Source of the DNA: Clostridium sp. 26_22
GTDB lineage: Bacteria; Bacillota; Clostridia; TANB77; CAG-508
DNA: 64,000 nucleotides
Reading direction: 5' to 3'
NCBI GenBank assembly: GCA_001916005.1
Contig: MNRP01000056.1
Span: forward strand, 182 to 64,181
This document shows positions 2,220 through 21,274 of the stretch, one piece after another. The notes below the pieces were generated by a model that saw nothing but the letters and a program-made list of their open reading frames with translations, did not search any database and was not told the DNA's origin. The position numbers and the translations under genes are program-made. Within the stretch, counting starts at the first letter, position 1, and each line of letters starts with the position of its first letter.

Positions 2220-3242
2220 TTATTTGTTGTTTAACTTCTTTGTTTCAATTACTAACTCATCAAAATCTGAAATATAATTTTGGTCTTGTATAACTCTATA
2301 TTTCTTGTACTCGTCTAATGCCAACTTATCCGCTATTTCTCTTTTTATTTTTCCATTATCTTTTAAAATATTATATTCATTTATTTTTAAGAATACTTCT
2401 AATTTTTCTTTCCATTCTTTCATTGAAATAATTTTTCCTAGTTTCACTTGTCTTTCTGCATAATCAAGGTACATTGATACCAAATTATTTAGTTCCGCAA
2501 TTTCTTCTTGTGATAGGTAATTTTTTGCTATTGTTACATCTGTTTCAAGTATTTTTCCATCTGGTGCATTTTTCCAAGTTGTTAGTCCCATATTCTCTTT
2601 TTTACTATCCACCCTATTATAAATTATTTCAGGAGCTGTCATTCCAGTAATTGCAAAATGTAACTTATTTTGAACATTTTTATAAAATTCCTGTGTTGTT
2701 TCGCTAGTTTTATCATAATCAAAACTGCATTCTTTATATATATCTGTTATTTTTTGATAAAATCTTCTTTCGCTTGCTCTAATTTCTTTTATTTTTACTA
2801 ATAATTCATCAAAGTAATCTTTTCCAAATTTAGGACCATTTTTTAGCATTTCACTATTAACAACAAAGCCTTTTTTTATATATTCTTTTAATGCTTTTGT
2901 TGCCCATATTCTAAAATCTGTTGCTTCTTTTGAATTCACTCTATATCCTACAGCTATAATTGCGTCAAGACTATAAAATGTTACTTCTCTTGAAACTTTT
3001 CTATTTCCTTCATTTTGAACTACTCTAATTTTTTGAGTAGTTCGATTTTCATTTAATTCCCCTGTTTTAAAAATGTTTTGTAAATGATATGTAATATTAT
3101 TTTCTGCTACATTAAATAATTTAGACATTGACTTTTGAGTTAACCAGAAATCTTCTTCATTATATAAAACTTCTACTGATATATTTTCATTATTTTGGCT
3201 TTGGTAAATAATTAAATCCTTTAAATTCTCTATATTATTCAA
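2220..3242 (-). CDS. rhuM: RhuM family virulence/accessory protein
   Basis: 340 aa. Recognised family pattern (WLTQKSMSKLF, YSLDAIIAVGYRVNS, ASERRFYQKITDIY). TTG start. Confidence 0.8.
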   Translation of the reverse strand: MNNIENLKDLIIYQSQNNENISVEVLYNEEDFWLTQKSMSKLFNVAENNITYHLQNIFKTGELNENRTTQKIRVVQNEGNRKVSREVTFYSLDAIIAVGYRVNSKEATDFRIWATKALKEYIKKGFVVNSEMLKNGPKFGKDYFDELLVKIKEIRASERRFYQKITDIYKECSFDYDKTSETTQEFYKNVQNKLHFAITGMTAPEIIYNRVDSKKENMGLTTWKNAPDGKILETDVTIAKNYLSQEEIAELNNLVSMYLDYAERQVKLGKIISMKEWKEKLEVFLKINEYNILKDNGKIKREIADKLALDEYKKYRVIQDQNYISDFDELVIETKKLNNK

Positions 3243-17402: not shown

Positions 17403-17714
17403 TTATAGTTCAAATATTTTTTCTAAGGCTTCTGCAACCCCTTCGTTATTGTTTGTTGTTGTAATAATATCTGCTCTTTCATATAATTCTTTTACTGCAT
17501 TTTTCATTGCTATTTTATAGCCTACTGTTTCAAACATTTCTATATCATTTCTTCCATCTCCAATTGCTATTGTTTGTGATAAATCTATTTTTAAATATTT
17601 GCTTAGATTTCTTATTGCATCTCCTTTTGTTGTATTTGGTGCCATTATATCTGTTATATATGGATTACTAATATAACCATTTTTTACTTTTCTTTGTTTT
17701 TGAGTTAGTCCCAT
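17403..17714 (-). pseudogene. C-terminal fragment of a Cof-type HAD-IIB phosphatase
   Basis: Only about 85 aa of the C-terminal core remain (TKGDAIRNL...IAIGDGRNDIEMF...AMKNA). Intact members are about 260 aa. Confidence 0.6.
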
Positions 17715-17831: not shown

Positions 17832-18950
17832 TTATATTAAATTTTCTGGATTTAATGCTTCTAATTCTGGTAATACAAATATTCCATCTTTTCTAACAAG
17901 AACATCATCAAAATACATTTCTCCGCCACCGTATTCTTTTCTTTGAATGTTTACAATGTCCCAATGTATACTTGATCTATTTCCATTGTCACTTTCCTCT
18001 AGAGCTTCTCCAGGTGTAAAGTGGAAACTTCCTTTTATTTTTTCATCAAATAATGTGTCTCCAATTGGTTTTTCTACATAAGGATTTAAACCTAATGCAA
18101 ATTCGCCTATATAACGAGCTCCTTTATCTGTATCTAAGATTTTGTTTAGCATTTCTGTGTTATTTGAGGTTGCTTTTACTATTTTTCCATTTTCAAATTC
18201 AAATCTAATATTATTAAATAAAACTCCATTATATGTTGTTTCTATATTATATGTAATATAACCATTTACACTATCTTTAACTGGTGCAGTAGCTACTTCT
18301 CCATCTGGAATATTGAATGTTCCCATATATTTTTCTGCTGGTATTCCTTTTATACTGAAAGTTAAATCTGTTCCTGGTCCTACAATATGAACTTTATCTG
18401 TTTTATTCATTAAGTCTTTTAAATTATCCATTGCTTTTGACATTTTTGCATAATCTAAATTACATACATTAAAATAGAAATCTTCAAAATTTTCTAAATT
18501 CATTTTACTCATTTGTGCCATTGAGTTATTTGGATATCTTAATATACACCATTTTGTTCTTTTTACTCTTTCTTCAAAGTGTACTGGTATCATATAATAT
18601 TTATTGTACATTTCCATTATTTTGCTATCTATGTTTGATATTTCTGAGGTGTTTGATGATGCTCTAATTCCTATATATGCGTCCATGTCTTTCATTCTTG
18701 CTGTATCATGTTTACTATATAATTTGATTTGTTCTTCTGTTGCATTTTCTAACATTATTCTTAGTAATTCATAATTTATTATGTTGAAGTATGGTCTAGC
18801 TTTCATTTGTTCTGCTTGTCTCATTAATTCTTTTGCTAGTGGCATTCCTTCTTCTCCTAATACTTCTATCAGTAGATTGTCATTTTCTTTTAAATCTATT
18901 GAGTATGTTAATAGGTTATGCGCTAACTTTTCTATTCTTGGATCTTTCAT
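17832..18950 (-). CDS. aminopeptidase, M29 (AmpS/PepS) family
   Basis: 372 aa. Recognised family pattern (KLAHNLLTYS..., GEFALGLNP, SIHWDIV). Confidence 0.8.
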   Translation of the reverse strand: MKDPRIEKLAHNLLTYSIDLKENDNLLIEVLGEEGMPLAKELMRQAEQMKARPYFNIINYELLRIMLENATEEQIKLYSKHDTARMKDMDAYIGIRASSNTSEISNIDSKIMEMYNKYYMIPVHFEERVKRTKWCILRYPNNSMAQMSKMNLENFEDFYFNVCNLDYAKMSKAMDNLKDLMNKTDKVHIVGPGTDLTFSIKGIPAEKYMGTFNIPDGEVATAPVKDSVNGYITYNIETTYNGVLFNNIRFEFENGKIVKATSNNTEMLNKILDTDKGARYIGEFALGLNPYVEKPIGDTLFDEKIKGSFHFTPGEALEESDNGNRSSIHWDIVNIQRKEYGGGEMYFDDVLVRKDGIFVLPELEALNPENLI

Positions 18951-19030: not shown

Positions 19031-19070
19031 AAAAATTTTAAAAAAGGTAAAAATCTAAATTCTTACCTTT
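19031..19070 (-). terminator. intrinsic terminator for minus-strand transcripts coming from 19.1-20.5 kb
   Basis: AAAGGUAA...UUACCUUU followed by a U-rich tract. Confidence 0.5.
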
Positions 19071-19182
19071 GATTTTACAGCTCCCACTTATCGGTAGGGT
19101 TCACCTGATTTTCAACTGTTGCTATTAATGTTTAATTTTTAATAATTTTTTGTTAATTTTTCGTTACAATTTTTTATATTTT

Positions 19183-19212
19183 CTTGACTTTATTATTATA
19201 CTTATCATATAA
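19183..19212 (+). promoter_or_regulatory. putative sigma-A promoter TTGACT-18-TATAAT for the antisense sRNA
   Basis: Hexamers read directly. Predicted TSS is about 19218-19220. Confidence 0.5.
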
Positions 19213-19217
19213 TATAA

Positions 19218-19308
19218 ATAGGAAAAGATAAATCCGTTAGATACGGTTTTGCCTATAAATAGTTAAATAAACCATTCATCTCGGTCAAAAGTAGAATGGT
19301 TTATTTTT
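19218..19308 (+). ncRNA. candidate antitoxin sRNA (about 90 nt), antisense to the 3' region of the toxin mRNA
   Basis: Promoter upstream. Canonical terminator AAACCAUUC..GAAUGGUUU plus U6 (19268-19308). No ORF. Confidence 0.5.
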
Positions 19309-19420
19309 TATTTATGTAATTGCTTGTTTATCCAGTTCTTATACAGAACTGACATTAAGGCAACGTTTAATGTTAAAGATAACATTAATGATATTACAAA
19401 AAATAGTATTACTTTAATCA
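19307..19420 (-). CDS. candidate type I toxin, 37-aa hydrophobic peptide MIKVILFFVISLMLSLTLNVALMSVLYKNWINKQLHK
   Basis: ATG..TAA ORF translated by hand. One TM helix plus a polar/basic tail. The SD-like GGGUGGUG lies inside a GC-rich stem. Confidence 0.5.
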
Positions 19421-19498
19421 TAAACACCACCCGCCTTTCCTACGATGAATCGTATAATATTGGGTGGCAAAACCGTTCCACTAATTATCTATTTCCTA
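19421..19498 (-). promoter_or_regulatory. toxin mRNA 5' UTR with mutually exclusive helices around the SD
   Basis: CCACCC (19466-19461) pairs either with GGGUGG (19431-19426, the SD) or, through CCAC, with GUGG (19480-19477). Confidence 0.45.
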
Positions 19499-19504
19499 TA
19501 TTAT

Positions 19505-19533
19505 TATTCTACAATATTATTATAGTTTTGTCT
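19505..19533 (-). promoter_or_regulatory. putative promoter TAGACA-17-TAGAAT for the toxin mRNA
   Basis: Hexamers read on the minus strand. Predicted TSS is about 19498. Confidence 0.4.
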
Positions 19534-19579
19534 ATACCAATAAGTAATTTTTTACTTTTTTAATTTTTTCATATTTTTC

Positions 19580-20536
19580 CTAACTTTCTTTTATATTCCA
19601 CTTTGGTGGATACATATATTCTATTTTATCAGTTTTTGCAACATATTTCTTTTTGATTTTTGTACGATTTGATTTTAATTCTGGTACTGCCTGTCTACAA
19701 TATTTATCTAGTTCACAAAATATATTTTGACAATCTATTAATTGTAAAGGTCTATTACCTATTGGCTTAAAATCTAAACCCAATCTTTTAAATTCCTTTT
19801 CTTGATTTTTACACATATATTTTATAATTTCTTCTTTTGATAATTCACCTGTACTTATAAAACACTTTTTTATTCCTCTTTCTGACCCAGGTCCTGCTAC
19901 CGTAAATTCCATTTCACTAAAATCTACAACATTACTATAATTTATATCTGTAATTAATTGATATGCCATAAAATTTCCAATAAGAGGATATGATTTTATT
20001 ATATTAAATGCTTCTTCCATATTTTTACTGTTAATTATTTTTGTATCAATATGGTCTTTTAAAAACATTTTTTCCAATAAGGCTAAATGATTTTCATGTT
20101 TTCTATCATAGCCAAATGCTTTATTTGCACAACTTATATATGCGTCATTATAAATTTTTTGTCCATTATTTATTGCTTTTTCTAGTATTTGTGAATATTT
20201 ATTAAAATCAAAACTTGATAAAGTTATATCTCCTATTTCATTTTCTAATAATTCCCATGTTGATTCTTTATTAAATAATTTAAATAATATTATTCTAAAA
20301 ATCATATCTGCATCTGTATATTTTTTACCATTATAAATCACATTTTTTAATAAGTATTGGCTTACTCTATCATTTACTCTATAGCTATTGCAAAACTTAA
20401 ATTCTTGCAAAATTTCATCTTTTGTCCATGGTGCTGGTTCTCCATTTTTCTTTTTTAGAAAAATATTTTGCCTTTCACATGCAAAATACCAATATAGATT
20501 GTATATTTTTTCTCTTTTTATTATTTTTTCTTCCAA
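19580..20536 (-). CDS. 5-hmdU DNA kinase-like / DNA base hypermodification family protein (helical domain)
   Basis: 318 aa. N-terminal signature YWYFACERQNIFLKKKNGEPAPWTKDEILQEFKFCNSYRVNDRVSQYL matches my recollection of the 5-HMUDK/aGPT-Pplase-type family. TTG start with AAGGAGA RBS. Confidence 0.55.
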   Translation of the reverse strand: MEEKIIKREKIYNLYWYFACERQNIFLKKKNGEPAPWTKDEILQEFKFCNSYRVNDRVSQYLLKNVIYNGKKYTDADMIFRIILFKLFNKESTWELLENEIGDITLSSFDFNKYSQILEKAINNGQKIYNDAYISCANKAFGYDRKHENHLALLEKMFLKDHIDTKIINSKNMEEAFNIIKSYPLIGNFMAYQLITDINYSNVVDFSEMEFTVAGPGSERGIKKCFISTGELSKEEIIKYMCKNQEKEFKRLGLDFKPIGNRPLQLIDCQNIFCELDKYCRQAVPELKSNRTKIKKKYVAKTDKIEYMYPPKWNIKES

Positions 20537-20668: not shown

Positions 20669-21274
20669 TTAAATTGCTTTTAATATGGTTTCAAAAGCTT
20701 TCTTTCTTGGTCCTATGTTATCTTTTTCTTCTGGACTAAGTTCAGAAAGTGTTTTGTCATAACCTTTTGCTTTGAAATATTGGTCAAATCCAAATTCTCT
20801 TTGACCTGCTTTCTGGCACATATCTCCATCTAATTTTTCTTCTACATATATAGTTCTTTCATTATCTATAAAAGCCATTGCAGTAACCCAATGTGCAGTA
20901 GTATCTTTATTTTCACTCTCTCCCATAAGGTCTAAAATTATAGGATATAGTTCACTTGGTTTGTCTACGTTTACATTTGAACCTGGACAAAGTTTTTCTA
21001 GACAACGTTTGGTATAAACACCTGGATATCCATCTAAGGCATCTATCTCTATTCCAGAATCTTCAGCAATTACTGGCATTTTTAATTTTTCTGCCCAATA
21101 TTTTGCTTTTATTGTTGCATTTTCCAAAAATGTTTTTCCTGTTTCCTCTGCTTGAGGTAGATTTGTTGCTTCTGGTATGTCTTTTAAGCAAAGTATTTTT
21201 ATATTATCTGGTGCCATCCTTTGCATTTCTTCTGCTTTTTTTTGGTTACAACTTGCGAAAACTATTTGTTTCAT
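20669..21274 (-). CDS. Ham1/RdgB family non-canonical purine NTP pyrophosphatase, divergent
   Basis: 201 aa. Conserved EETGKTFLENA, AEDSGIEIDAL.GYPGVY and FGFDQYF. Several canonical residues differ (SCNQKK for TGNxGK, GPRKKA for SHRxxA). Confidence 0.75.
   Translation of the reverse strand: MKQIVFASCNQKKAEEMQRMAPDNIKILCLKDIPEATNLPQAEETGKTFLENATIKAKYWAEKLKMPVIAEDSGIEIDALDGYPGVYTKRCLEKLCPGSNVNVDKPSELYPIILDLMGESENKDTTAHWVTAMAFIDNERTIYVEEKLDGDMCQKAGQREFGFDQYFKAKGYDKTLSELSPEEKDNIGPRKKAFETILKAI

Follow-up and report, generated by a model that had tools for sequence, protein, structure and literature searches.

The module lies in a gap of 629 bp between two minus-strand genes, one for an M29 aminopeptidase and one for a 5-hmdU DNA kinase-like protein, in the 64 kb stretch of DNA that was analysed as a whole (the window). 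It fits into about 350 bp of otherwise unannotated DNA. A preliminary description had proposed here a short minus-strand ORF, two promoter-like sites, a terminator hairpin, a helix occluding the SD and two similar RNA starts. All of these are present in the sequence; their coordinates had been given consistently 1 nt too low. The features are located as follows:

17832-18950, minus strand: gene for an M29 aminopeptidase, flanking the gap
19184-19213, plus strand: sRNA promoter TTGACT-18-TATAAT, 11/12
19218-19253, plus strand: 5' box of the sRNA, twin of the mRNA 5' box; its only other copy is 19499-19466 on the minus strand
19218-19313, plus strand: predicted antisense sRNA of ~95 nt, putative antitoxin, assigned from promoter, fold and terminator
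19265-19313, both strands: shared hairpin terminator with a perfect 13-bp stem (19265-19277/19294-19306), a 16-nt loop and a plus-strand T run to ~19313
19308-19421, minus strand: 37-aa ORF MIKVILFFVISLMLSLTLNVALMSVLYKNWINKQLHK plus stop, putative toxin, assigned from conservation and coding signature
19425-19435, minus strand: SD tract GGCGGGUGGUG, within which GGGUGGU pairs with GCCACCC
19441-19454, minus strand: small 5'-UTR hairpin UACGA-UUCA-UCGUA between anti-SD and SD, with a compensatory change in three sequences
19462-19468, minus strand: anti-SD GCCACCC, paired with the SD in the MFE fold and in the alignment consensus fold
19466-19499, minus strand: 5' box of the mRNA, AUAGGAAAUAGAUAAUUAGUGGAACGGUUUUGCC, twin of the sRNA 5' box, merging into the anti-SD at its 3' end
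19506-19534, minus strand: toxin mRNA promoter, -35 TAGACA (19534-19529), 17-nt spacer, -10 TAGAAT (19511-19506), 10/12, conserved
19580-20536, minus strand: gene for the 5-hmdU DNA kinase-like protein (Pfam HMUDK_hel, E = 6e-108), flanking the gap

The 37-aa ORF was found as previously described, from an ATG at 19421-19419 to a TAA at 19310-19308; the GTGs upstream of this ATG fall within the SD. The encoded peptide is a K-flanked hydrophobic stretch of 23 residues, followed in the family by YKNW-x-(D/N)KQLHK (YKNWINKQLHK in the window), with a Kyte-Doolittle hydropathy of +2.48 for residues 4-26 and -1.75 for residues 27-37. The family shows no or almost no variation at Asn19, which lies within the membrane segment, at Trp30 and at the C-terminal residues. 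Trp30 occurs in all 56 unique ORFs of the main family, and is Y, L or V in some distant clades. The conserved polar motif of the main-family peptide is S-L-T-L-N-V-A-L.

Relatives of the peptide are numerous. Among predicted proteins there are 33, with 65-87% identity, and the tblastn search that had been suggested confirmed 217 copies in a scan of species-representative genomes, one genome per species. With few exceptions, the carriers are MAGs of uncultured low-GC gut bacteria, under the labels Clostridium sp., Clostridia, Bacilli, Erysipelotrichaceae, Anaeroplasma or Tenericutes. Several genomes carry at least two copies of the module, sometimes in tandem, and the copies within one genome are diverged. 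A profile search of 1.84 billion representatives yielded 28 protein clusters at 50% identity; the most distant peptides, for instance MIKFLLILIYGLLISIIINVALLTVIYINWVNKELQK, are only ~50% identical and keep the reading frame. When peptides of the distant clades were used to scan metagenomes, 93 more relatives were recovered; the scan yielded 80 more loci, every one with the same architecture. This gave a total of 151 modules, of which 103 unique ones with both boxes served for the promoter and layout counts, while comparisons within the main family used 76 distinct modules and 56 unique ORFs of 114 nt.

In these ORFs, variability by codon position is 1.43/0.66/2.48, the third position being the most variable, dN/dS is 0.28, and the replacements are conservative (V/I/L/F and T/M/I/A). 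The ORF is exactly 114 nt long in 73 of the 76 main-family modules and has no indels, in which the UTRs are rich. By these sequence signatures, the 37-aa ORF is coding. Its second half is nearly invariant at synonymous sites too (dS 0.17) and forms conserved hairpins, and the Ala codon is always GCC although the DNA has a GC content of ~25%. Because of this invariance at synonymous sites, part of the apparent protein conservation must reflect constraint at the RNA level on top of the coding constraint.

Neither the peptide nor 44 of its relatives matched an entry in Pfam, NCBIfam, PHROG or PADLOC; with 44 family members as queries and a threshold of E <= 10, the Pfam type I toxin models stayed without a match. 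The literature searched for the peptide motifs contained no mention of them, and searches for the architecture returned known families only. That the peptide matches no known toxin family is a point against the type I toxin reading.

The layout around the ORF is conserved as well. The 103 modules share one order of elements: a toxin promoter of low strength, a leader containing the anti-SD, then a small hairpin, a near-perfect SD, the ORF, a terminator and a convergent ~95-nt sRNA. In the main family, an exact ATAGGAA box lies 73-78 nt upstream of the ATG in 67 of 76 modules, and its reverse complement lies 64-88 nt past the stop in 69 of 76; the other modules mostly have one or two substitutions in the box. 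In four modules (L027, L028, L036 and L063), the mRNA 5' box and promoter have been replaced altogether and the ORF kept. The aligned modules have the two promoters, the two boxes, SD, ORF and hairpin in one and the same order, and conservation stops at the two -35 hexamers. Conservation of the ORF together with a convergent sRNA in related genomes had been set beforehand as the test of the proposal, and the layout proved to be kept, distant clades included.

Both promoter-like sites named in the preliminary description were found, with 11/12 matching positions on the plus strand and 10/12 on the minus strand. The difference in strength is a property of the family: the sRNA promoter has 11-12/12 matches to TTGACA-17/18-TATAAT in 102 of the 103 unique modules, the toxin promoter 8-10/12 in 95 of 103, the -10 of the latter ending 7 nt before the box in 73 of 103. 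Type I loci are expected to show just this imbalance, with the antitoxin promoter the stronger of the two (PMC6563280).

From the minus-strand promoter, the toxin mRNA would start at A 19499. The predicted 240-nt mRNA folds better than its shuffles (z = -4.96), and its MFE fold contains the SD-occluding helix that had been proposed. The consensus fold of 69 mRNAs contains the same anti-SD:SD helix, in which five of the seven pairs vary one-sidedly and yet stay paired; 99.2% of its cells are paired, against 33-47% in slid controls. Within the main family, which is very uniform, this helix shows little true covariation. Between clades, its two strands co-vary, giving GCCACCC:GGGUGGU, GCCACCU:AGGUGGU, UUACCUCU:AGGAGGUGA, and UACCUUU with GGAGGUG. 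Cognate leader and SD segments pair better than non-cognate ones (-10.2 versus -8.9 kcal/mol, permutation p = 0.0025). The stem of the small hairpin between anti-SD and SD is swapped wholesale in distant clades, to CACAG/CUGUG, CAUAGU/ACUAUG or CUCGA/UCGAG. In the terminated mRNA, the start-codon region can, according to the prediction, also pair with the ORF core or with the stop region.

The sequestered SD is a very good one. Its family consensus, AAAGGUGGUGAU, has standard spacing to the ATG and matches AAAGGAGGUGAU, the ideal Gram-positive SD, at 11 of 12 positions; it is one base off a perfect complement of the Gram-positive 16S 3' end.

On the opposite strand, the predicted sRNA consists of a single-stranded 5' end AUAGGAAA, an imperfect hairpin with the core CCGU (19234-19237)/ACGG (19243-19246), the segment UUUUGCC, a variable linker and the terminator. 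The corresponding parts in the family are single-stranded AUAG(G/A)AAAUGA, a hairpin, (A/G)CC(AC), a variable linker and the terminator. The 95-nt sRNA folds better than its shuffles (z = -3.88). An across-clade sequence alignment of its 5' domain gave no consensus fold, as the register is lost in sequence-based alignment, and hairpins were extracted from each sequence separately instead. The hairpin stem exists in at least ten sequence versions, all of them pairing, among them CCAC/GUGG, CCGU/ACGG, AACACA/UGUGUU, AACAUACA/UGUAUGUU, AACCGCA/UGCGGUU, AGUCACA/UGUGACU and AACCAUA/UAUGGUU. A single-stranded ACCAC or GCCAC, with the same sequence as the anti-SD of the leader, comes after this hairpin in distant clades.

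The terminator hairpin is present as had been stated; calling it canonical was slightly generous given its 16-nt loop, on account of which a simple terminator scan missed it. It is predicted to end the sRNA and, more weakly, the mRNA: past the stem, the first 8 nt contain a mean of 6.4 U when read as sRNA and 2.8 U when read as mRNA; the plus-strand U run is antisense to the toxin stop codon. The stem has unrelated sequence versions, two of them in the family, with the hairpin kept each time. Co-folding of the sRNA with the mRNA gives one intermolecular helix, a perfect 3' duplex of 48-51 bp that runs from the stop codon to the mRNA 3' end (ddG -44 to -57 kcal/mol). The 3' overlap of the proposed antisense geometry is present in the predicted transcripts; comprising only the stop codon and the 3' UTR, it is nearer in geometry to Fst/RNAII and SprA1/SprA1AS than to RatA or SR4. 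Rfam contains 13 type I antitoxin families (PMC8594479); its covariance models returned only noise at E <= 10, with no antitoxin family match, and tRNA and tmRNA genes were not found.

The preliminary description had also pointed to sequences of ~35 nt shared by the starts of the two RNAs. These boxes have only each other as match in the 64 kb, and 100 shuffles gave none. Since they are inverted, both RNAs begin with the same sequence. In several instances, the two copies change in parallel: ACGGUUUUGCC is found in both boxes of the window's clade and GUGGUUUUGCC in both boxes of the main clade; both boxes of other clades share GUGGUUUGCC(AC), GUGUUG(C/U)CAC, GUGUUACC or CUACCAC; and both boxes contain AUAGAGAA in module L053 and GAG in the L019 group. 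The twin boxes are therefore not the frozen relic of a duplication. The leader of the window's clade keeps a separate GUGG that is able to pair with the CCAC of the anti-SD, so a different constraint must act on the ACGG there. In a few natural recombinants the boxes do not match (L137, L143 and L148), so box identity is no absolute requirement for persistence.

Several roles for the shared 5' sequence were considered. That the sRNA 5' domain acts in trans as an anti-TIR, in the manner of RNA II or SprA1AS, is not supported: duplex energies relative to dinucleotide shuffles ranged from z -1.9 to +0.8, and cognate combinations of the domain with the SD/start region were no better than combinations between clades (p = 0.22). 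Because the SD core is invariant, such action nevertheless retains some probability. Clamping of codons 6-9 by the 5' end of both RNAs was discarded, the best site usually lying at +16 to +27 and being no better than in shuffles, while synonymous co-variation amounted to no more than a hint. An upstream ORF in the leader, or a short one in the sRNA, was dismissed because AUG is absent from the window's boxes, though it is present in the box of most clades.

Pairing of the sRNA 5' arm with the leader's copy of the 3' arm shows a modest cognate preference (p = 0.007), its energy being about offset by the cost of opening the sRNA's own hairpin. In the predicted fold of a 470-nt read-through mRNA of the window, the 5' leader pairs with the 3' extension, which is the complement of the sRNA box (MFE -112.7 kcal/mol, z = -7.9); folding the mRNAs of other clades together with their tail brings up this helix as well. 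The fold-back of the toxin mRNA 5' end onto its own 3' end that had been envisaged is thus strongly favoured in the read-through mRNA and would form only if the terminator is read through. Of the trans-acting anti-TIR, the pairing of the sRNA 5' arm with the leader and the read-through fold-back, the last two would in these models account best for the parallel changes in the boxes. Tentatively, the antitoxin RNA might carry a copy of the toxin mRNA's own cis leader, with the same 5' end and anti-SD segment, kept alike by selection; it could then serve as a stand-in in trans for the lock or as a competitor of the lock, or its gene could supply the 3' partner for a hok-like fold-back in read-through mRNA. 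We consider this possible but rather doubtful. Any of these three readings, if true, would be a control logic not described for known type I families, found in a family restricted to low-GC gut bacteria that are uncultured.

The position of the module next to the hypermodification-like gene had been taken as typical of an addiction cassette, a suggestion that comparison with other genomes does not bear out. None of 84 related loci has the window's neighbour genes within 3 kb of the module; elsewhere, modules are flanked by unrelated housekeeping genes, in a different chromosomal context each time. A blastn search of 50,697 phage and 72,556 plasmid records gave no match, and 2.9 million viral contigs contained a single relative. 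A link to the adjacent HMUDK gene, and carriage by phages or plasmids, were rejected on these grounds, and the near-absence from phages and plasmids makes a classical addiction role unlikely. Judged from its genomic contexts, the module is a free-standing chromosomal unit that is moved or lost independently.

By definition, type I loci combine a toxin of fewer than 60 aa, with a TM domain and a charged C-terminus, with an antisense RNA and a sequestered RBS (PMC6563280). Here, the peptide is hydrophobic, shorter than 60 aa and charged at its C-terminus, with a predicted TM segment; the toxin mRNA is predicted to hide its RBS in a stable structure; and the predicted sRNA would be the product of a cis-encoded antisense gene with complementarity to that mRNA. 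The locus thus has the hallmarks of a type I system in silico, its features fit the published definition and regulation (PMC6563280, PMC7472228, PMC8594479), and the comparative evidence supports the type I toxin-antitoxin-like reading put forward at the outset.

Among known systems, par/Fst and SprA1 come closest in architecture. With par of Enterococcus faecalis pAD1 (Fst/RNA I-RNA II), it has in common convergent promoters, terminator stem-loops as the region of overlap, an intramolecular 5' structure that hides the SD, and a repeat near the 5' ends of both genes; with the Fst toxin, the 37-aa peptide shares a TM helix, a conserved Trp and a charged C-terminus (PMC7472228). The convergent promoters, bidirectional terminator and 5' structures typical of the Fst/Ldr group are all found, the terminator being asymmetric. 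The repeats differ in orientation: DRa and DRb of par are direct and give complementary RNA 5' regions, whereas the boxes here are inverted and give identical ones. Most Fst/Ldr members have a P/D/S/T-xxx-G(C) motif in the TM segment, which is essential in Fst and Lpt (PMC7472228). This motif is missing here: Pro is absent from the main family, and Gly never stands four positions after S or T. Also unlike Fst/Ldr, the peptide matches no Pfam toxin model and the ~95-nt sRNA no Rfam antitoxin.

In SprA1/SprA1AS (PepA1) of Staphylococcus aureus, the antisense gene likewise lies 3' of the toxin gene and the overlap is outside the ORF; functional contact is made via the non-overlapping part of the antisense RNA (PMC8594479). 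The sRNA 5' domain may act in the same way here. The likeness has its limits, as complementarity between this domain and the start region is no better than in controls, and the peptides are unrelated.

A convergent antisense RNA overlapping at the 3' end, with a duplex that is a likely RNase III substrate, is also shared with bsrG/SR4 and txpA/RatA of Bacillus subtilis and CD2517.1/RCd8 of Clostridioides difficile. These systems have no sequence similarity to the module and lack twin 5' leaders. In these families the antisense RNA reaches into the ORF (PMC8594479), in txpA/RatA and bsrG/SR4 into its 3' part, whereas here the stop codon marks the beginning of the overlap. SR4 binding to the 3' end of bsrG has the further effect of extending the SD-sequestering helix (PMC3834814, PMC6563280), and it is plausible by analogy that an SR4-like 3' duplex acts on the switchable SD helix of the leader. 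As in hok/sok and aapA1/isoA1, the toxin mRNA is apparently built to be translationally inert, with 5'-3' pairing predicted here for the read-through form. It differs from hok/sok in having the antisense RNA at the 3' rather than the 5' end, in having no conserved leader ORF, and in a fold-back that requires read-through.

Taken together, these data suggest that the locus is probably a type I toxin-antitoxin-like module, chromosomal and of a hitherto undescribed family. Against this reading stand, besides the absence of a toxin family match and of the Fst/Ldr motif, the RNA-level share in the conservation of the ORF and the few copies that keep the ORF although their mRNA leader and promoter are gone. 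In the mechanism we propose, a moderately strong promoter would give rise to a ~240-nt toxin mRNA encoding a 37-aa single-pass membrane peptide. The anti-SD of the leader would lock the very strong SD in cis, with conserved hairpins hiding the ORF as well. On the opposite strand, the ~95-nt sRNA would come from a promoter that is close to consensus and presumably constitutive; the 3' half of this sRNA is predicted to pair without a mismatch with the end of the mRNA, beginning at the stop codon. The resulting duplex at the shared terminator would lead to RNase III-type decay of the mRNA, hold the SD-closed fold, or both. Beyond this duplex, the non-overlapping 5' domain of the sRNA probably touches the mRNA a second time, at the leader or around the translation start.

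The same arrangement could instead belong to a small membrane protein that is not toxic, such as a subunit or regulator of some membrane complex, tuned by the leader switch and the cis-antisense RNA. The comparative evidence for ORF and sRNA would fit such a protein equally well, and the lack of a match to any toxin family, as well as the chromosomal rather than phage or plasmid location, speak for it. We nevertheless consider it unlikely: diverged multi-copy and tandem arrays, shifting context, recombinant and decaying copies, a double lock on a near-perfect SD and an antisense promoter much stronger than the sense one are all more typical of type I toxin-antitoxin loci than of small housekeeping proteins.

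Much less probable still is a structured non-coding RNA, or a MITE-like mobile element with inverted repeats, in which the ORF would be incidental. The nearly nucleotide-invariant second half of the ORF, folded into conserved hairpins, and the inverted repeats flanking a unit found at different loci might be read in this way. Codon-position bias, the low dN/dS, conservative hydrophobic replacements, a fixed start and stop and the complete lack of indels in the ORF contradict it, as do a near-perfect SD at the right spacing and a frame kept at ~50% identity in distant clades; in addition, conservation stops at the -35 boxes, and the inverted repeats lie inside the transcripts and are not element ends. 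A chance ORF accompanied by chance motifs in AT-rich intergenic DNA has a negligible probability. Promoter-like hexamers are indeed in no excess here, with eight found and 6.4 expected from shuffles. The decisive argument against chance is that the whole layout recurs in 103 distinct modules of other genomes and metagenomes; with an arrangement kept in hundreds of genomes and a chance expectation of zero for the twin boxes, this explanation is already refuted.

Type I toxin-antitoxin loci are hard to find because their peptides are short and their antitoxins are RNAs. The curated type I database lists 24 families, all from cultured bacteria (PMC8594479). The type I module proposed here would add a family that is widespread, and present in multiple copies, in low-GC gut lineages that are uncultured and whose RNA regulation is almost entirely unexplored. 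The ORF and the sRNA are both unannotated and merit inclusion in annotation models. More than 100 natural variants, together with the natural recombinants, constitute a comparative set for the SD switch, the Fst-like terminator and the twin leader.

In the 37-aa putative toxin ORF, the codons for the invariant N-V-A-L core are fixed in all clades of the family even at synonymous sites, with the Ala codon always GCC. The segment is complementary to the region of the Shine-Dalgarno (SD) tract and start codon (AAGG...AUGUUUA), and in several of the predicted clade folds it is this segment, not the leader, that pairs with the SD. Because it displaces the leader as SD partner in these models, the core codon segment suggests a possible second anti-SD, internal to the ORF.

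19356-19370, minus strand: codons for the N-V-A-L core (AAC GUU GCC UU), with equivalents in all clades

Several related loci in other genomes and metagenomes carry altered or paired copies of the module (coordinates are local to each locus).

L137, L143 and L148, about 620-900 in each: natural chimeric modules
L135 and L141, 701-860: stop codon and terminator deleted
L027, L028, L036 and L063, about 2920-3000: unrelated sequence in place of the mRNA 5' box and promoter
L009, 2466-3210; L005, 783-4208; L086, 1478-1913; L099, 48-860: tandem or close module pairs

The chimeras take their leader and N-terminal half from one clade and their C-terminal half, terminator and sRNA from another. The crossover falls within the invariant ..INVALL.. 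core and, as a result, their 5' boxes are mismatched. In L135 and L141, the deletion extends the ORF to 50 aa, so that it stops a little short of the sRNA box; both modules are probably in decay. The four loci with replaced 5' sequence retain an intact ORF, SD and sRNA gene, and may be silent or orphan-antitoxin copies. Paired modules within one genome or contig often belong to different family clades; such pairs are typical of duplicating, diverging type I loci.

Around the module, the window contains the following features.

17403-17714, minus strand: 103-aa ORF matching the Hydrolase_3 (HAD) profile
19043-19070, minus strand: 12-bp hairpin with a T run after it, between the M29 aminopeptidase gene (17832-18950) and the module
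19083-19105: GC-rich 23-mer CCCACTTATCGGTAGGGTTCACC, adjoining the hairpin
19580-20536, minus strand: gene for a 318-aa protein that matches Pfam HMUDK_hel (the helical domain of 5-hmdU DNA kinase) at full length, E = 6e-108

The hairpin with its T run is likely to act as terminator for any toxin transcript reading through the shared terminator. The neighbouring 23-mer has an unusually high GC content and occurs once in the window. The Hydrolase_3 match is confined to the final third of the profile (positions 170-255 of 255), and just 117 nt separate this ORF from the next gene; it looks like the remnant of a truncated gene. The HMUDK_hel gene adjoins a Ham1/RdgB-type NTP pyrophosphatase gene (20669-21274) and is isolated among otherwise housekeeping genes, all on the minus strand. 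Its domain is of a phage DNA-hypermodification type, yet the setting is chromosomal.
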